Assembly: GCA_013239625.1 (NCBI GenBank)
Contig: MU053513.1
Span: 3,212,927 to 3,276,926, forward strand
Source of the DNA: Lama guanicoe
Taxonomy: Eukaryota
Direction: 5' to 3'
DNA: 64,000 nucleotides
The notes under the pieces were generated by a model that did not search any database, had not been told where the DNA came from, and worked only from the letters and a program-made list of their open reading frames with translations. Position numbers and translations under genes: made by a program. Below, piece after piece: positions 1,565 to 64,000 of the stretch (position 1 is its first letter; each line of letters starts with the position of its first letter).

Positions 1565-1680
1565 TTTGCAAGCGGCTTAAGGGAGAGATGTACTATCTTT
1601 GTATCCTACGTAATGCCTAGCTCAGATCAGGCAACAGATGGCCAATAAATATTTGTTGATATTTTCTTGATTAAATGAAA
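1565..1680 (+). mobile_element. LINE-2 3' end fragment
   Basis: ctttgtatcc...aatgcctagctcag...caataaatatttgttga. Confidence 0.5.
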
Positions 1681-2409
1681 TCCATTTGCTGACATCATGG
1701 AGGGGGATTTTGACTTGATGCTGTCTAATGGGCTGGCTTAGTCCCTACATAAAGACCAGAAGCTTCGGGAATGGTTTGCAGCTGTCACAATGACAGATGC
1801 TAATTTAAGTCACAGATATTTTGTTTTGAATTGTGCACAGGTTTCATCTATGCAATATTTATTGTAGTGACACTGTGGTGGTTCTTAAGCTTTAATGTTC
1901 GTATTTTCTCCATTTTCTAGTATAGTTTTCAATCTATATATCTTTATTCTTTTTGAAATGAAGATTGTAACTATTTAATTACATTGATCACTTTAATTTA
2001 TATAAATTTAAGAATTTTTTATACAAATCATGGGAAAAAATAACACGGAGTGAAATAGCATTCTGTGGAGGTTCTTTTTCTGTAGCACCTTCAGTGTCCT
2101 CACATAACCAGAATCTGAAAGGCATGTTTTTTATGCCATTCTTTGCTCTGTGAATAAGTTATGTTTATAGTAAGTCAGTTTGTTAAAGATTTTTGGCGTG
2201 TCCACAGCCACGAGACTGACCTGGATGAAGAGCGTGGAAATGCAGGCAATGACGAAATTCTGCACTTGCCCTGGGATGTAGGGATCAGCCGGATTCTTAA
2301 TGTACTAACTTTCTTATCAGCAGCTTTCATTTCTTTTCATCTTATTATGATTCAGAAAGCAGAGCACCCCTCCAGGATGCCCTTCATCTTGTGGTTGTTG
2401 TAAACAGAA

Positions 2410-2625
2410 TGTGTATTCTAGAGTCAGACAACCCTGGATTCAGATCGTAATTCTGCTACTCATGTGCCAGGTGACCATCTTTCTGAGTCTCAGTTTCCTC
2501 ACTGTAAAATGGACGTAATGATAACCACCTCTTAAGAGTTGCAATGCGGATTAAATGAGATAAGGTGCATATTAAATGTCTTGTGCATGAGACTCAATAT
2601 ATTATCACTATTTTCATCATTATTT
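2410..2625 (+). mobile_element. MIR SINE
   Basis: gagtcagac...ctgagtctcagtttcctcactgtaaaatgg...ggattaaatgagataa MIR core. Confidence 0.75.
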
Positions 2626-2679
2626 CTCACTTGCAATAACTTTGTGCCATTGAAATAGGTCACTTTGTGACCATTGAAA

Positions 2680-3400
2680 TAGAAATATGAACAAGACAGC
2701 TTCTAAGACTTTAAGAAACTCATAGTCTAGATGGGGAGAGAGAAACATAAGTAGACAATTCCAACTAGTGAATGGGCAGAAAATACTGATAATGCGTGCA
2801 AGGACAGAGACATGCCCAGGGTAGTGTGGGAGCTCGGAGGAAGAGTATCCAACTCATGAGGCGGGAGGAGGCTTCCTAATGGGTATCACATAGTTGGTCT
2901 TAAAGGGTAAATGGGATTCAGCAAGAGGGAGAATGGAAGAGTGGTCCAGGTACAGGGAACAGCATCAGCAAAGGCATGGAAGCAAGACACAATAGCGTGC
3001 TCAGGGAGCAGCAAGCCATTCAGTGCTGTTGCCCGCAAAGTCTAAGGCACAGGGTGGTGAATGTGGAGAGAGGAGGCTAGAGGCAAGCAGCTCATGGAGG
3101 TATGTCATGGCAAGGATTTTGAATTTCATCCTGTAGAAAACTGGTAGAAAATGCAATGAGAGCATTTAAATAAATAATTGACATAGTGATATTTGAATAA
3201 AATATATCTCACTGGTGGCTTTGTGGAAAAGGGATTGGATGAAGATGTGAGGAAGTGAAGAAAGACTTAAGTAAGAGCCTAAACTAGGGCATGGTTGTAG
3301 GGAGGGATTTAAGAATTAAGAGGGAATGAGGCAAAGCTTGCTACAGAGAGGAAGAAATCAAGGAGAACACACAGGTTTCTACCTAGGGGTAGAAGTGGAA
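2680..3400 (-). mobile_element. LINE-2 fragment
   Basis: atgaacaagacag...ctcatagtctagatgggg...gggaacagcatcagcaaaggcatgga typical antisense L2. Confidence 0.6.

Positions 3401-10280: not shown

Positions 10281-10321
<41 letters not shown>
10281..10321 (+). repeat. (CA)20 microsatellite
   Basis: perfect CA run read directly. Confidence 0.98.
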
Positions 10322-10323
<2 letters not shown>

Positions 10324-11410
10324 CAGTTACCAGCCCATGCCCGCAACAGGAGTAAGCAGGTCACTGTAACCTTGGGCCATCTTTCACCCAGCACAGAACT
10401 TTGAAGCTACTTTACTTTTACCATCAGTTGGGTTTGTGTTCTATAAGGCTGTGTGGGACTCTGGAGTTTCTTTGGAAACTTGTGCCTGGTCTTCAACCCT
10501 GTTCTGATGTCTCTCACATCACCTTGAAGTTCAAGGGCATGTAATAATGTTGTGGATTCCCAAGGCTCCTATGCGCAAATGTCAAACATTAATGTAGTTT
10601 TGCTTTAGAATGTTGTTTATTGATTCAGTGTATTTTTCTGGGTTTTGTGTCTGATGCTCAGTTTGGAGGTGAGTTTTGCCCTTTCCTCTCACTTGTAGGC
10701 TTGTCTGATCGTATTCCCTTTCTGATCCTGGTGAATGAGCCACTGGGTTACTTTACACTCAGTCACATTCACCCACAGTGGATTTTATGACAGTTATGGT
10801 GTTAAAGCCAGAGTCTCACTTGGAGAAACGAAGTATTGGCATCTGAGTTGGAAAAGCGTAGGCGGAGGTTGTTTTTGTACAGTATGGAGTAATACTAGAC
10901 CAACATATGGCTTTTGACTGTCGGTGTCTCCGCCTTTGGGGCCCGCCTGTGGGGAGGGTCTCAGGCACACCACTTGGAACTGGTGGCTGAAGCAAAGTTG
11001 CCTTGTTAGATCAGAATGGGTAACGGGTATTTGGAGCCACTGAGCAGGCAATTTTTACCATTAGTCTCCTACCCCACAGCATATACCCTTTTTCATTATC
11101 TCTTTCTTCTCCTCCTTCTACCGCTGTTTCTTTATCTTTTTCCTTCTCCTTCTTTGTTCTGCTTTCTCTGAATCTTAGCTGTTTCACGCCTAACCCTGTT
11201 AATGTTACATGGATTTAAAAGGTTGTGGATCCCCAATTCAAAACAATCTTTAGACTGTGGTCTGGTTTTCCATATGCCTCCAATGCAGGTAATCACACAC
11301 AGGTGATAAAGGAATTTTACAGTGGCTCCGTCATCTAACTCATGAGATTGATGCTAATATCTCTTTTAGACAGAGTTGCAGTCTTACCACCAAGATTGCT
11401 TTCCTTTAGG

Positions 11411-27303: not shown

Positions 27304-27376
27304 GTCCGCTGGCTGCAGTGAGTCACCACTCATCCCAGGGGTTGATTTAGCTCTCCAAGGAGAAGTGGAAAGAGTC

Positions 27377-27723
27377 TGCTATGATCTGAATATGTGTGTT
27401 CCCCCCAAATTCATATGCTGAACTCCTAACCCCCAATGGTAACGGTATTAGTAGGTGGGGATCATTGGGAGGTGATGGGGTCATGAGGATGGTGCCCTCA
27501 AGAATGACATTAGTGCCCTTATAAGAGACCCTGCAGAGCTTCCTCACCCCTTCAGCCGTGGGAGGATACAAGAAGTCTGTGACTTGGAAAAGGCACCTCA
27601 CCCAACCATGCTGACACCCTGATCTCGGACTTACAGCCTCCAGAACTGCGAGCAACCAATTTGTTGTTTATAGGCTACCCAGCCTTCTGTATTTTGTTAT
27701 AGCAGCCCAAATGGACTACAACA
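27377..27723 (+). mobile_element. MaLR solo LTR (MLT1A-like)
   Basis: tgctatgatctgaat...attagtgcccttataagaga...ttgttatagcagcccaaatggactacaaca. Confidence 0.85.
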
Positions 27724-31304: not shown

Positions 31305-31456
31305 TTTTGTTTGTTTGTTTGTGATTTTTGGGGGGTGGAGGAGGTAATTAGGTTATTTATTAATTTTTTTATTTTCTAACGCAGGTACTGGGGATTGAAT
31401 CCGGGACCTCATGCATGCTAGGCAGCAGCTCTACCACTGAGCTATATCCTCCCTCT
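31305..31456 (-). mobile_element. tRNA-derived SINE (camelid-type)
   Basis: antisense has A-box tagctcagtggtag, B-box ggattcaatccc and an A-rich tail; 15-bp TSD gaagatacatttctt (31290-31304) / gaagataaatttctt (31457-31471). Confidence 0.9.
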
Positions 31457-33638: not shown

Positions 33639-35007
33639 TGAGTAATGAAGAATTAACCTTACTCTCCACAAACAATAAATGCTGGAGAGGGTGTGAAGAA
33701 AAGGGAATCCTCCTATATTGTTGGTGGGAATGTAATTTGGTGCGGCCACTATGCAAAACAGTATGAAGATTTGTTAAAAAACTAAAAACAGACTTACTAT
33801 ATGATCCAGCAGTCCCACTCCTGGTATATACCTGGAGGAAACCCTAATTCAAAAAGATACATGTACTCCAGTGTTCATAGCAGCACTATTTACAGTAGTC
33901 AAGATATGGAAGCAACCTGAATGTCCATTGACAGATGATCAAACAAAAAAGATGAGTTATATACAATGGAATATGATTCAGCCATAAAAAAGAATGAAAT
34001 AATGCCATTTGCAGCAACATGGATAAACCTAAAGATTATCATATTAAGTGAAGTTAAGTCAGATGACAAAAGACAAATATCATATGATATCACTATATGT
34101 GGAATCTAAAAAGTTACACAGATGAACTTATTTATAGAAGACTCACAGATATAAAAAACAAACTTATGGTTATCAAGGGGAAAAGAGGGGGAAGGAATAA
34201 ATTAGAAGTTTGAGATTAGCAGATTCACACTGTAGATAAAATAGATAAACAACAAGAACCTACTGTATAGCACAGGGAACTATATTCAATAGCTTATAAT
34301 AACCTATAATAAAAAAGAATATGAAGATATATATAATATGTATAATTGAATCACTATGCTGTACACCAGAAACTAACACAACATTGTAAATCAACTATAC
34401 CTCAATTAAAAACTTTAAAAATTAATCTTACTCAAAGAGACACCTGCCCTTTGCCCTTGGCTAGTAGGAGTTGATCTCCAAGTCTTCAAAATGGTGTACC
34501 TGATAGGAGTGTCTTTTTTTGCCTGGGGGGCCTTGGCCACCACACGGTCAAACAGTGTGATTTATGGTGGGGGTTTGGGCCACTCAGTATCCACTTTACC
34601 TCTGGAGGGGCTGCAAACTTGAAGTTAGCCACATGGGCAGTCAACCATGGAGCCCCAATAAAAACTGTGGACACCAAGGCTTGGGTGAGCGTTCCAGGCT
34701 GGCAACATCCCATGCATATTGTCACACATTTTTGCTCATAAATAACTCCATCCATGACTCCACAGGGAGAGGATGACTAGAAGCTTCATGTGTGATAGTT
34801 TCCTGGACTCTGCTGCATGCATTTCTTCCCTTGGTTGATTTTAATCTGTATGTTTTCCATATAATAAGCCATAAATGTGAGTATAACAGTTTTTGATGTG
34901 CTCAGTGAATCTTTTAGTGAATTATCAAATGTGAGGGTAGTTTTGGGACCCCTTGAACTTGCAGTTGGTGTCAGACATGAGGACATACCCCTCTCTCCAA
35001 TTTTGCA
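33639..35007 (+). mobile_element. ERV LTR (MER21/MER68/MER77-like), split by a young L1
   Basis: tgagtaatgaagaattaaccttactc|caaagag...gaattatcaaatgtgagggtagttttgggacccc...gaacttgcagttggtgtcaga...ttgca; host L1 resumes after it. Confidence 0.75.
33665..34419 (+). mobile_element. lineage-specific 5'-truncated L1
   Basis: ORF2 C-terminus, 3'UTR and A-tail; 14-bp TSD aattaaccttactc (33651-33664) / aattaatcttactc (34420-34433). Confidence 0.9.
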
Positions 35008-35499: not shown

Positions 35500-36325
35500 G
35501 TATGTAAGGAACAAAAGGAGGAAAATAACCCAGAGAAAGAAAAAAGTTCAGAGAGATAAAAGGGAGAAACCAGCAGAGCACAGCATCAGGGAAATCAAAA
35601 GAAGAGTTTTAAATAGCACACAATGCTCACAGTGCTTCGAGGAGCTAAGGAACAATAAGAAACGATTCGTGGATTTGGCAGTTAGACCATTCTGACCTTT
35701 CAAAGAGCAGCTTCAACAGAGTAGTGAGAGTGAAGCCAGACTGCAAGAAGTTGAGGAGAGAGCAGGAAGTGACGACGTGGAGACAATAAGTGTTGATGCC
35801 ACTATCTGGAAGTTCAGCAGTAAAAGACAGGAGGTGGAACAGGAACTTCAGCTGCAAAGAATCACAGAGTTAAGAGTCTGCTATACACTCTTAATGTTTG
35901 TGTCCCCCAAAACTCACATGCTGAAGCCTAGCCACCAATGTGATGCTATTAGGTGAGCCTTTGGGAGGTGACCAGGTCATGAGAGTGGGACTAGTGCTGA
36001 ATGGGACTAGTGCTCTTATTAAAGGAATCCCAGAGAGCTCCCTCTCCTCCTTCCAACATGTGAGGATATACTACACGAAGATCCCTTCTACAAACCAGGA
36101 AGTGGGTCTCACCAGTCACCAAATCTGCCAGCACCTTGATCTTGAACTTCTCAGCCTCAGAACTGTGAGGAATAAATTTCTGTCATTTATAAGCTGCCCA
36201 GTCTATAGTATTCTGTTGTAGTAGCCTGAATGGACTAAGACAGAGTCTTGTTTCATTTTCTTTTGTTTTTGAGGAAGGAGGACATTGGTGAACTGATGGC
36301 AGAGAAGGAGAAATTAAAGATTGGA
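35500..36325 (-). mobile_element. LINE-2, interrupted by an MLT1A-like LTR
   Basis: ggatttggcagttagacc...tgacctttcaaagagcagcttcaacagagt...gtgaagccagactgca. Confidence 0.65.
35879..36242 (+). mobile_element. MaLR solo LTR (MLT1A-like)
   Basis: TG...CA termini with perfect 5-bp TSD GAGTC (35874-35878 / 36243-36247). Confidence 0.9.
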
Positions 36326-36969: not shown

Positions 36970-37570
36970 ACCATTTGAACCTGTCCACAGGGCGGCAAGT
37001 GCCAGGCACGCGCAGGGCTGGGGCAGGGCTGGGGCGGAGGTGATCAGCGCAAAGGACAAAGGCCCTCCGGGGGACTTCTCCTTTGGGAAGGAGTCTGGCT
37101 CGGCTTGCTGTGAAGAAATAGGGCAGGAGGGTCTGAACGCAGCGCAGTCCCTGGCAAGCCCACTACCCAGGTGGGGAGAGTGTTGGTGTTGTGAGCTATT
37201 TCATGAAATCCTGTAACATTCCTAGATCCAGGTGACTCGGTTTTGTGAGGCTCCAACACACACACGCGCACACACACACACACACACACACATACATATC
37301 ATATCACAGGGGACAGGGGCTGCTTCTCTCTCATCTAACTTAAGACTGAGCACAGTCAGGTCCAGGATGAAAGACCTGGATCCAGGTCTGCCCTCCACGT
37401 CAATGCTGGCGCAGCTCCCAGAGAGACAATGGCTCACTAAGGTACCACAGAAACCTGGAAGTAGCTCGGTCCACCCGGCCAGCGGCAGCTGCCGAGGCGG
37501 ATGGTGGTCCTGGTCCCATGTAAGACTTGGGACTCCCATATACACTAGGGGGAATGAGTGAGTCGGTGGG
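36970..37570. promoter_or_regulatory. CpG/GC-enriched promoter- or enhancer-like island
   Basis: local CpG retention; GC box GGGGCGGAG 37031-37039; G4 motif 37015-37034; DR1-like aggacaaaggcc; kB-like gggacttctcc 37071-37081. Confidence 0.5.
37256..37292 (+). repeat. (CA)n microsatellite with a CG interruption
   Basis: read directly. Confidence 0.95.
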
Positions 37571-43419: not shown

Positions 43420-43764
43420 TGCTAAGGACTGAATGTGTGCCCCCTAAATTCATACTTGGAAGCCTTGGTCCCCAGTGTATTTGGAGGTGGGACTTTTGGG
43501 AGGTAATTAGGTTTAGATGAAGTCACAAAGTAAAGTCCCTGTGATGAGATTGGTCCTTATAAGGGAATGAAGAGATCAGAGCTCTTTCTCTAGCATGGGA
43601 GGACACAGCGGGAAAATAGCCATCTGCAAACCGGGAAGAGGACCCTCACCCAATCATGCTCACACCGTGGTATCGGTCTTCCAGCCTTCAGAACTGTAAG
43701 AAATAGATGTTGTTTAAATCACCCTGTCTATAGCATTTTTCCTATAGCAGCCCAAGCTAAAACA
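43420..43764 (+). mobile_element. MaLR solo LTR (MLT1A-like)
   Basis: TG...CA termini with perfect 5-bp TSD GATGT (43415-43419 / 43765-43769). Confidence 0.9.
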
Positions 43765-44584: not shown

Positions 44585-45945
44585 TGTGGTAAACAAAGCT
44601 TACCGATGTATTTGGGTTCTTCTCTTCTTCTGAACACACGAGTGGATTACATGACCCTACCCATTTAAGTTAGTCGATCTATTTTGGCCAATGAAATGAC
44701 ATAATATACTTCATGGCAGAAGCATTTAAGATGCAAAGTGCAATTCTCCACTTCTCTTGCCATAGCAATGCCTGGACGTCATGTTGAGATGGAAGCATCA
44801 TCCAATGCCCACTTCATACCTGGGACCAGGGATGATAACAGAGAAGGAACGACCTCCTAGAGGGCCAAGCCAAGGAGACTGATAGACCTGGGGACTTTCC
44901 TAGAGGTCAGAATGGAGCTCAACCTAGGAATATTCTCCACTTCCAAGGCAGGGAAACATCACATGCCAGTGAGTTCTCAGACTTGCTGTGTGTTTCCCAT
45001 TCTTCCTCTTACAGACTAGGGATGCTTATTGAAGTCATCCACAGGGAGGGCAAGGGCAGGGGGAAGATGATTTGCCTTTTTAATTCACAGTGTTTCACGG
45101 GGATTTGGGGTTCTCTCCTTGGCAGGATGCTATGACCTGAATGTTTGTGTCCCCTCAAAGTTCATACGTTGACATCCTAACTCTTGAGGTGATGGTATTA
45201 GGAGGTGTGGGCCTTTGGGAGATGATTATATCATGAGGGCAGAACCCTCATGAATGGAATTAGTGCCCTCATAAAAGAGGTCCAAGAAAGCTCCCTTTTT
45301 TACCATGTGAGGACATAGCATAAATATGCCGTCTATAAGCCAGAAAATGGGCTCTCACTAGACACTGAACCTGCCAGCATCTTGATCTTGGATTTTCCAA
45401 AGTTCAGAACTATGAGAAACAAATATCTGCTGTTTACATGCTACTGAGTCTCTGGTATTTTATTAACAGCCCAAACGGACTAAGACACGGAGGGTAAGGA
45501 CCATATTCTGCGTGCAGGGGCAAAAAGTGAACCTAATGTTTGGTTAGTGATAGGCCTTATAAGTTACTCCTCAATATTTCTCTTCTCCCCTTCTTCCTGG
45601 AGTACTAGCAGATTATAAATCTCTGTCTCTTGAAGTTAGGCATAGCCAATGGCTCGCTATGGTCAATGGGATATACGCAGAAATGATGTGTCACATCTGG
45701 GCAGACACATTTAAGATCCAGTGCATGGTCATCTATGCTTATTTCCCTTGTCACAGCAAACCCTGACGCCCTGAGTGGAAATAGCAATGTTGTAAGGTGA
45801 TAAAGCTTGCATCAGCCAGGCTGACTGTCCCCTGCCAACACAAGTACGATGTGTAGTATTAGAAAAAAATAAACCTTTGTCATTTAAACACAGAGAGTCT
45901 GAAGGTGGTTTGTTACACCACCTAGTCTCTAGTTATAACTGATTC
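44585..45945 (+). mobile_element. degenerate old MaLR element: LTR fragment, internal remnant, LTR (MLT1H/I-like)
   Basis: two related LTR-like blocks (~44585-44810, ~45545-45945; aagttag...ggccaatgaaatg...gcatttaaga vs aagttagg...ggtcaatggga...acatttaaga) around internal-like sequence. Confidence 0.55.
45128..45487 (+). mobile_element. MaLR solo LTR (MLT1A-like) nested in the older MaLR
   Basis: tgctatgacctgaatgtttgtgtcccc...cagcccaaacggactaagaca. Confidence 0.85.
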
Positions 45946-46700
45946 TCTCCTGATCATACCCTAAAACGTGGCATTATGAGGGCCCTGAAATTAGAAGTTA
46001 ACATTGCAGCTCAGACTGGATATTAAGGGTTAGCAGAGCAATGGGACACACCCAAAAGAGAACCTAACATGAATATGAGCTCTTTTAGTTAAACTGTCCA
46101 GCAACTGCTCCTTAGTGAAGGAGATGAAATAGGGTTTATTGAAAATGCACATATATAATAAAAGATATATGGTTTATGGAGTCACTTATTTGCTAAAAAA
46201 TGCTTTATTCATCTTCAAAAAGAACTGAGTTAAAGATCCCTTTAGGGATCCCCAGAGAGGACAACCTGGTAAGGAACACATTTCTCGTAATGTGCTTTGT
46301 CAACATGTTACATCAGAATCACCAGAATCCTTATTAAAAATCCAAGTTCCGAAGCCCTATCACTGAAAGAAACTCACTGCTTTAGCAAATTCTGTTTTAA
46401 GGAGCCTTATTTCTGTCTGGGTATGCTATATAATATTCTTTGACTTTTCCTAGAGTTACATAACTCCCAGGGCAGTAATCCCACAATCCCCTTAAGTCCA
46501 TAGATATTTAAGACCATTAACAATTCCTTAGGAGTTAATGCCCAAGCTAATAACGAAAAAGTGAATTATAATCATCTGACTTTTAAGCAGGCATCCGTGA
46601 TGGACTTAGAATAAGGAAGAATCCATAATTACCTGTGAAATCAGTATTTGAAATATCCTTTAGTGTTAATGTCAAGAATATTAAACACCTGCTATGTTCT

Positions 46701-47717
46701 TAATTTTAACCATTATTCTGGGTGTTAGGTAGACAAAGATAATGGTTCCATGTCTTAAGGAATTCCCTGAGGAAGGAACAATTCTGTCAGTTCTCATTAT
46801 TCACCACTGTTATGTTCTTTTAAGTCACCACAAGCACTGAATTAGCAAATACTGAACCACTAATCCTAGGAAATGTGGGGTTAGATTCCTGTGAGCCTCC
46901 GATCATAACATTTTTGTCATCTAATAAATACATAACCTTGTTTTATGTGTTTCTGTTTACAGACAATTTATTTAATACATATTGCTGATTAATTAACATT
47001 GAACTCACTGCCAACAGCACTATAACTCATGCCTGAACAAAGCTTCTATAAGGCACATCACGGCCCTCTGGCACTTAGGAACACCACACAACGCTTCAGC
47101 ACTATGCTTGGGGGTGGGCATTTCATACAGCAAAATCACCAACAAAAAGCACAAAAATGTGAAAACCATAGCATGAAACGCCACAGAAAGGACATTTTAT
47201 TTCACAGCGTGAGAGCTGAAACAAGCAGGCTGCCTGCCTGAACCTCAGCTGGGAACATGCATGATGGGTGACTCACATTTTTTCTTCTGGGGGTGTATCC
47301 ACAAGTGACAATGAACATGTCACAGGTGTTGGTTGGGGGATCACAGATTCATTTTAGTGAGTGCAGAAATTTGAAAATACAGAACTGTGAATAATAAGGA
47401 TCAACTGTGTATTTGTTGATAATGTGCAAATGCTGTAAAGGAAGCACAGACTAGGTATGATGGAAATGCAGAGGAAGAAAACTTAGAGTTTGCTGGGTGA
47501 GGATGGAGGAAGGCAGAGAAGCAGTCAGAGAGGAATATCCCTATATTTCCTAGGAGCAGTGGTTCAGTATTTGCTAATTCAGTGCTTGTGGTGACTTAAA
47601 AGAATGTAAAAATGTAAATAATGAGAATCGACTGTATCGTTCCTTCCTCAGGGAGTTCTTTGAGACATAGAACCGTCATCCTTGTATAGCTAACACCCAG
47701 AATAATGGTTAAAATTA
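46701..47717. repeat. ~190-bp inverted duplication (arms 46701-46890 and 47531-47717)
   Basis: hand alignment gives ~27 differences in 190 nt, with perfect 47-bp and 28-bp blocks. Confidence 0.93.
46784..47407 (-). mobile_element. TcMar-Tigger element (MER82-like)
   Basis: TIRs ctgtcagttctcattattcac ... gtgaataataaggatcaactg; internal acctcagctgggaac and gagagctgaaacaag. Confidence 0.8.
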
Positions 47718-48539
47718 TTGCTCTGCTTAAGCAAAGACTTGTAAAGTGAACAGGAATTTGACCAATAGGTAAAGAAGAGAGTATTCCAGGAAGAGAGAAA
47801 TGTGTGTGGGAAGAAAGTGGGACTAGACAGACTACTGGGCAATGATCCTGAAAGGCCTTGCATGCCAAGCTGAGGAGGTTATATTTTATCCTCAGAAAAT
47901 ATCAGCAAATGATATCCTGGTTAACTAAACAGACTTTCAATTTCCATCTCCCCTCTATTTGTCACATTGCTACCTCATCATCAAGTACCAAAAGAGTGTA
48001 AATTATTATCTTCAGAATAATGATTGTTTGCCCCATTCCTTTTGTAATTTCTTCTGCTTAAATTTCATTTCCTAATCATGGCTTGCCTGAAAGCTGCACA
48101 GTATGATTTATTCACTGAGTAATTTCATATTTAGGAGACAATGTTTTGGCAATGTTTTGATTAGATGAGAATCCAAGACATGGAACATGACATGAATCAA
48201 TATCTGTCTAATCCCCAGATAACTACAACTCAATCAAATAAAACCCATCAGAGTGGCTATGATGTCTACCACATTTTAGAAATGTGTTTTTGACCAAGCA
48301 GAGGGAAATATCATCAAGGAGCAAGCCTCTGTACATTTGGAGAAGGTAAACCAATTCAAAGACTGGACAAATTGATCAGCTTGTCAACTGAGTGGAATTT
48401 GTGTTACTAGGGACCTTATGATGGGTGTTGTCATTGTTTTAAGTGCCTGGAGTCCTTTCCTTGCTTTACCAGTCTTAGACAGTGCTCAGACAGATCTGCC
48501 TTTCATTCACTAAATGGAATTACTGCAGTTACCTAGGTG

Positions 48540-51589: not shown

Positions 51590-52520
51590 ACTCAGTCTAC
51601 AATGTGGAGAAGAGATCATCAGGTGGTGAGGGTAGAAACTGGAAGGCCAGGTAGGAGATTTTGATGACAAAGCACGAGTTGATGGACAAGGGTTGGAAGC
51701 AGTGGTGATGGAGAGAAGTGGACAGATTTGGGGTATATTTTGGAAGTAGAGCTAATGTATTGAATGGCAGTGGGTAGGGGAATAGTGAAGGCAAGAGTAG
51801 AATCACTATTTACAATAGCCAAGACATGGAAACAACCTAAATGTCCATCCATGGATGACTGGATAAAGAAGTTGTGGTATCTATATACAATGGAATAGTA
51901 CTCAGCCATAAAAATGACAACATAATGGCATTTGGAGCAGCATGGGTGGACCTGGAGTTCACCATTTTAAGTGAAGTAAGCCAGAAAGAGAAAGAAAAAT
52001 ATCACATGCTATTACTTATATGTGGAATCTTAAAAAAAGACACAAATGAACTTATTTATAAAACAGAAACAGACCCACAGACATAGAAAACAAACTCATG
52101 GTTACCAGAGAGGAAAGAGGGTGAAAGGGATACATCGGGAGTTCGAGATTTGCAGATACTAACTACTGTGTATAAAATAAATAAACAACAAATTCATACT
52201 GTATACCACAGGGAACTATATTCAATGTTTTGTAGTACCTATAATGAAAAAGAATATATGTACAAATATGTATGGCTGAAATATTATGCTGTCCACCAGA
52301 AATTGACACAACATTGTAAACTGACTATAGTTCAATTAAAAAAAAAGAGTAGAATCAAAAATGACTGTAAGGTTTTGGTTTGAGTACTTGGGCAGGGATG
52401 GTATCATTTTGTGAAAGGTAAGACTGGGGAAGGAACAAGTTTGGGGAGGGGTGCCAATAGGTAAAAGTTCTGTTTGGTAAATGTTAGTTTTGAAATGCCT
52501 TTTGACATCCATGTGGAGAT
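51590..52520 (-). mobile_element. LINE-2, interrupted by a young L1
   Basis: gcagtggtgatggagagaagtggacagatttggggtatattttgga...agagtagaatcaaaaatgact...ttttgaaatgcc. Confidence 0.75.
51806..52344 (+). mobile_element. young lineage-specific 5'-truncated L1
   Basis: L1 3' end with A-tail; perfect 13-bp TSD aagagtagaatca (51793-51805 / 52345-52357). Confidence 0.93.
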
Positions 52521-57595: not shown

Positions 57596-57724
57596 GGTTT
57601 TGGGGGAGGTTTGGGGGTGAGATTAGGCTTACTTGTTTATTCAGTGTAGCTACTGGGGATTGAACCCAGGACCTCATGCTTGGTAGGCATGCACTCTACC
57701 ACTGGACTACACCTTCCCCCACCC
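57596..57724 (-). mobile_element. tRNA-derived SINE (camelid-type)
   Basis: ctggggattgaacccaggacctcatgc...ctctaccactggactacacc; degenerate TSD agaaaccacag / agaaatcatag. Confidence 0.85.
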
Positions 57725-63489: not shown

Positions 63490-64000
63490 AGATTCTTAAA
63501 ATCTAGAACGAGAGAAAACTGTAGGAGAAAAAATTGAGATATATAATAGAGACTTCATTAACAGACCAGAAATAAATTCACAGAGAAGAAATAGCAGAAC
63601 TTTTTAAAATTTTTGTGTTTTGGTGGATATAAAAAGCTTACCAGATACCAGGTAAAACTGAAAAGACAAAAACAAAAACAAAAACATCTAGACATAATTC
63701 AATGACATTTTAAAATTTCAAGGATAAAGAAATTTAGAAAACTAAAATACAAACATAAACAAAAATGTGATCTAAAATATTTCCACGAATTAATACCAGA
63801 GAAATCTTACTCAGCATTCACCAAACTTCAAAGAGAAAGATTCTGCAATATACAACCAAGTTGTTGTTTGTGTAAAAAAAGAAAGATATTTTTAGTTATA
63901 CAAAGATTCACAACACATACTCCTAAAATTACCTTCCTAAAAATATTTACTTGAAAGAGGTTGAGGGGAAAATTAAAATTAAAGAAATTAAGTTTGAGAA
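63490..64000 (+). mobile_element. old L1/HAL1 ORF1-region remnant
   Basis: A-rich; catctagacataattcaatgacattttaaaatttcaaggataaaga resembles the decayed ORF1 segment PRHI.V.F...KDKE. Confidence 0.5.

Follow-up and report, generated by a model that had tools for sequence, protein, structure and literature searches.

An old inverted copy of a DNA-transposon end and its flank in Lama guanicoe, probably made by template switching

The left end of a decayed DNA transposon, together with 83 nt of the host sequence beside it, is present twice and in opposite orientations within a stretch of 64,000 nucleotides of Lama guanicoe DNA (hereafter the window), and the evidence supports a single local duplication event as the origin of this inverted pair. 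The event was probably a switch of template by a polymerase, during replication or break repair, by which one local templated insertion would have been made without a transposase. Read in this way, the locus is a further instance of a known mutation class, a small and ordinary inverted duplication.

An inverted copy of a transposon end and its flank

Comparison of the 64-kb window with itself by BLAST gave a minus-strand match between 46701-46890 and 47717-47531 (190 columns, 85.8% identity, E 4e-56), the sole minus-strand match among 11 off-diagonal matches. The arms were identical in 163 of the 190 columns and differed in 27, three of these being gap columns, which bears out the preliminary description of 47531-47717 as the reverse complement of 46701-46890 with some 27 differences. 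That description had placed about 83 bp of flank and about 105 bp of element in the copy, about 125 bp past the other end of the element, and these figures also held, with 83 nt of flank and approximately 100-107 nt of element found and a distance of 122-123 nt measured beyond the right terminus. Origin of the pair by chance was ruled out by the E value.

Read from the left, host repeat is followed by the 624-bp element, from which the inverted copy of 187 nt is separated by another 123 nt of host, and past the copy the host repeat probably resumes. The donor arm, or template, as delimited by the self-BLAST alignment, lies on the plus strand at 46701-46890 and comprises 83 nt of flank (46701-46783) and the first 107 nt of the element; it is the original arm because it is contiguous with the remainder of the element. 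The element itself (46784-47407) is a non-autonomous DNA-transposon relic with terminal inverted repeats, of which the left (46784-46806, plus strand) is decayed and the right (47385-47407, minus strand) is followed by TG and then TA. We take it to be MER82-like, of the Tc1/mariner group, and the host and flank repeat to be L2. MER82 is placed under Mariner/Tc1 in the accessible text of PMC5753468. The host repeat between the right end of the element and the copy occupies 47408-47530 (plus strand), and the copy (47531-47717, minus strand) is made up of an element part at 47531-47634, a TA at 47635-47636 and a flank part extending to 47717.

TA adjoins the copied terminus only (TA followed by CAGTCG), the original left terminus having TT (followed by CTGTCA), and the copied terminus matches the right terminus at 18/22 positions where the original matches it at 16/22. 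The letters thus confirm the cleaner terminus that had been noted in the copy, but this says little on mechanism, as it amounts to four substitutions, within 8 nt, in the original arm. Compared with the copy, the left terminus of the original has a small mutation cluster at 46783-46790, for which no exact inverted or direct template was found within 3 kb. After the right terminus, 47408-47411 carry TG and then TA rather than TA directly; the target may have mutated, or two bases may be extra.

Between the arms, 72 of the 82 flank positions at 46701-46782 were identical (88%), and this common flank rules out two independent insertions, in agreement with the earlier proposal of a single local event rather than two MER82 insertions. 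The donor flank matched weakly to a profile of LINE-like relics taken from the window and is probably an old LINE relic. Membership of the shared flank in a longer repeat had been set against a single event beforehand; the single event nevertheless stands, as independent LINE relic copies in the window hardly align, far below the 88% of the two arm flanks. Pairwise, the flanks aligned with other relics in the window no better than shuffles did, and the window held no second copy of the element, the best score being no higher than those of shuffles. A flipped spacer was ruled out as the origin of the pair by the continuity of the element from the left arm.

The host repeat had also been said to resume after the copy, which is weakly supported here. 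The host sequences to the left and right of the copy were joined (the resumption being placed at 47718-47900, plus strand), and over its whole length the joined piece aligned with a single relic copy of the five tested, at 2670-3200, with 1/100 shuffles scoring as high; the other four were not significant (13-19/100 shuffles as high). A profile of nine relics gave the joined host a score of 2.0 bits, where the best of 200 shuffles reached 1.6. Six bases past the outer junction of the copy lies a perfect 10-bp palindrome (47724-47733), which may be there by chance.

An assembly artefact was ruled out by sequencing runs, with 14 of the 24 runs listed containing 0.91-0.97 of the words sampled from 46300-48300; removal of two possible source entries left 12 runs from 6 studies under 4 organism labels. 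As 200 of the 1971 31-mers of the region (10%) owe their existence to the copy alone, runs at 0.95-0.97 must contain it, and since such runs were found under four organism labels (A, C, D and E), the copy is common to several close taxa. Six further runs, two of them recorded as RNA, gave shares of 0.06-0.20 and are no evidence of transcription. A pattern scan of viral contigs for other family copies or orthologues returned 0 matches, and a single match in a metagenome contig (L001, 678-703) was rejected as a chance match of 23-26 nt inside bacterial-looking DNA.

Junctions and mode of origin

Neither junction of the copy coincides with a terminus: the outer one falls in the flank, 83 nt away from the left terminus, and the inner one falls within the element, at a distance of 107 nt. 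The sequences flanking the copy have 0-1 nt in common for three possible copy starts, and no target-site duplication was found around it, though one of 2 nt could have eroded and this absence is weak evidence alone. Only one terminus is present in the copy, still attached to the old left flank, and neither an excision footprint nor a second terminus was found there. The donor element is whole, and comparing the window with itself gave no further duplication in the vicinity.

The preliminary description had proposed alternative end transposition, with a replication template switch as its fallback. The former gains no support from the absent target-site duplication or from the borders, because no border is a terminus, one terminus only was copied and the old flank was kept. 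In maize Ac/Ds, according to the accessible text of PMC4270019 and bioRxiv 2020.01.07.897926, the termini, once excised, are joined to a new target and form the borders of the composite insertion, which is flanked by an 8-bp duplication; linked duplications, deletions and footprints accompany these products. Like those events, the present locus includes the end of a transposon and donor flank, inverted and close to the donor, but the duplications in those sources measure kb to Mb, with reciprocal deletions and bordering termini, whereas the terminus here is internal and joined to old flank. The fallback is the reading supported by the data, both by the junctions away from the termini and by the insert being the reverse complement of a nearby template, 640 nt away.

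By template switching, synthesis proceeding from left to right would have halted at approximately 47530-47536, and its 3' end would have annealed about 640 nt back, probably via a 6-nt match at 46885-46890. Some 187 nt of the opposite strand would then have been copied back to 46701 before synthesis returned to the original template just ahead, giving the order 3-2-1-4, and it would have been by chance that the copied piece took in the left end of a transposon relic, which was old by then. The motif concerned, AGGAAT (47531-47536, plus strand), stands at the inner junction, and its complement on the donor side (46885-46890, plus strand), the proposed inner switch point, is shifted by two bases relative to the core alignment and has a second possible site at 46523. 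The match may be microhomology that pre-existed and primed the switch, or may merely be copied sequence; a priming test was negative, the rank of the observed donor site among 740 windows being 29, 196 and 226 for the three primers. Folding at the inner junction was not unusual (z +1.43), and no microhomology was evident at the outer junction.

In its inverted repeat and spacer, and its nearby opposite-strand template, the locus resembles the four-point short-range switches (3-2-1-4 and 1-4-3-2) described in the accessible parts of PMC5453318 and PMC7954356. In those switches synthesis returns just ahead of its exit, as host collinearity weakly supports here, and the 3-2-1-4 class plus its mirror accounts for 31% of high-confidence human-chimp events (PMC5453318, accessible part). 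At 187 nt, however, the copy exceeds every gold-standard short-range switch reported for apes in the available text of PMC7954356 (median 12, maximum 128), and it differs from them also in being far older, with arms 14% diverged. Closer in size are the small inverted duplications of humans, of which 277 with a median of 284 bp, mostly with 1-15 bp of microhomology and ascribed to a replicative origin, are given for long-read data from 1,019 genomes in the accessible text of PMC12350158; templated insertions also occur as germline variants, according to that of PMC8421209. The locus agrees with the human inverted duplications and MMBIR insertions of these two sources in size, in having an inverted template close by, in short or absent homology at the junctions and in germline occurrence, while those are present-day polymorphisms with sharp junctions and this one is old, with microhomology that is not confidently readable.

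A back-of-envelope scaling, which assumes a constant ratio to point mutations, gave 1,600-3,400 such events per lineage, or 0.05-0.11 per 64-kb window. By rough estimate a DNA-transposon fragment end would fall in about 5% of 187-nt pieces and one of Tigger class in 0.8%. Counting against template switching, chance capture of a Tigger-class end is thus expected in only about 1% of events; over a large number of windows a coincidence of this kind is expected.

The position of the copy also bears on a switch steered by the element without transposase, in which terminal repeats paired within a single strand would stall the fork or shorten the distance, so that the acceptor, located 123 nt beyond the right end of the element, would come close to the donor, 107 nt in from the left end. 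The donor is indeed close to one end of a single inverted-repeat element and the acceptor close to the other, and in the accessible part of PMC7954356 some of the ape template switches are preceded by structure that already existed. Such steering is nevertheless unlikely, given terminal repeats of only about 22 nt that were decaying already and symmetry centres of the arms (47209) and the element (47096) that lie about 113 nt apart. The arms are out of hairpin register by this distance, and the copy is therefore no extension of the terminal-repeat hairpin.

A free fragment of DNA or cDNA captured by end joining at a double-strand break, or invasion of the sister chromatid, would account for the missing target duplication, the little homology at the junctions and the negative priming test. 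We give this very low probability, as a donor merely 640 nt from the acceptor favours local templating and the copy has neither a poly(A) tail nor a sign of splicing, although end-joining capture and template switching are inseparable from the sequence alone.

Divergence of the arms and age of the copy

Of 179 sites compared between the arms, 17 carry transitions and 6 carry transversions (K2P 0.144 +/- 0.032), with similar values for the flank (0.136) and the element (0.150). Among comparison pairs from the window, K was 0.29-0.35 for three old LTR-like pairs, 0.23 for LINE and 0.16 for tRNA-derived SINE. Mismatches were less frequent between the arms (23/179) than in the old pairs (258/1014; P=0.0002), and this lower divergence suggests that the copy may have arisen tens of millions of years after the insertion.

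The divergence is uneven along the arms. A 47-nt run at 46815-46861 (plus strand), mirrored at 47558-47604, is identical in both (P=0.011 by shuffling; 0.001 without terminal runs), whereas the same longest-run test on five control pairs gave P values of 0.52-0.92. This candidate correction tract was probably produced when, after the template switch, at least the 47-nt run of one arm was overwritten by the other. A perfect-identity patch inside diverged arms is like the homogenisation of inverted-repeat arms by template switching described in the available text of PMC8604942, but the yeast repeats described there are short, while the arms here are 187 nt long and 640 nt apart. Omitting the 47-nt run raised K to 0.20 (95% 0.13-0.32; P=0.052 against the old pairs), and omitting a 28-nt run as well, which overcorrects, gave 0.27 (0.17-0.44; P=0.55). 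The date of the copy is soft because the 47-nt run points to later correction and so to the higher K of 0.20.

At long-term rates of 1.5-2.2e-9 per year, the K of the arms corresponds to 33-48 million years. The rate of 2.5e-8 per five-year generation that is used in the accessible part of PMC8605555 converts it to 14 million years. As a soft estimate from the letters of the arms, the copy would be roughly 15-60 million years old and later than the insertion.

The main placental groups split about 85-95 million years ago, and the insertion of the element should predate that split. Both arms presumably share about three departures from the family consensus outside the 47-nt run, near 46808, 46870 and 46876, and on this assumption the copy would postdate the insertion. 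One MER82 copy is conserved between human and mouse in the accessible text of PMC6979391, and a family common to both was active before the split of their lineages.

These dates can be set against a transposase-born event in the period of family activity, by which an inverted whole element with its left flank would have been placed 123 nt beyond the original. A deletion of about 520 nt would later have removed the transposed right end from this unstable near-palindrome, and partial homogenisation of the remaining arms would hide their age. Maize composite insertions can include donor flank, which is reached when re-replication starts at the transposed terminus and passes through the element, and can carry this flank past the far end of the element (PMC4270019 and bioRxiv 2020.01.07.897926, accessible text); arm homogenisation is indicated by the 47-nt run, the K obtained under extreme correction overlaps the old repeat pairs, and the family was already active before the human and mouse lineages split. 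The deletion that this reading requires is unseen, however, all of the transposition marks sought at the junctions are absent, both the uncorrected K (0.14) and the moderately corrected one lie below those of the old LTR-like pairs, and the presumed shared departures place the copy after the insertion. We thus consider an origin by transposase highly improbable, and it would be equally surprising if the locus were a mammalian fossil of one-ended or alternative Tigger-type transposition, trimmed by deletion and kept young-looking by conversion. Were this true and the locus transcribed, the arms would yield a long hairpin RNA over the terminal repeat, like maize 'Ac killer' alleles. A literature search, with most subscription journals outside its range, returned nothing on this locus or on mammalian transposase-made duplications of flank plus end.

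Meaning of the locus and other features of the window

If template switching is the true explanation, the locus matters little, being probably one of a few thousand (a rough figure) old small inverted duplications per mammalian genome. Its presence or absence could serve as a marker in the camelid or artiodactyl tree, and it could be used as a test case for germ-line mutual correction of inverted arms 640 nt apart. Greater weight would attach to it only with a genome-wide excess of such copies at DNA-transposon ends, or with an orthologue date within the mobile period of the family.

No function of the inverted pair is indicated. The arm-arm RNA duplex was predicted at approximately -250 kcal/mol, as any such repeat would give, and Rfam gave nothing in the region and 2 tRNA-like matches elsewhere in the window. 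No genes were seen in 1-24000 and 27000-60000 of the window, which contains 17 open frames of at least 110 aa.

Several other repeats were observed in the window. Four old LTR-like copies of up to about 350 bp, 69-75% alike, lie at 27370-27718, 35872-36242, 43634-43755 and 45128-45487; we take them to be of MLT1 type, and three of the four served as the internal clock. The Rfam tRNA matches correspond to minus-strand copies of a tRNA-derived SINE (31380-31451 and 57645-57716), presumably of camelid type. Two LINE-1-like 3' ends (33878-34412 and 51798-52342) are 77% alike, and a 47-nt fragment at 36345-36391 matches the end of the second at 87%. Two (CA)20 microsatellites (10281-10321 and 37256-37296) and three short tandem duplications (474-499, 11084-11153 and 63557-63593) were also present.
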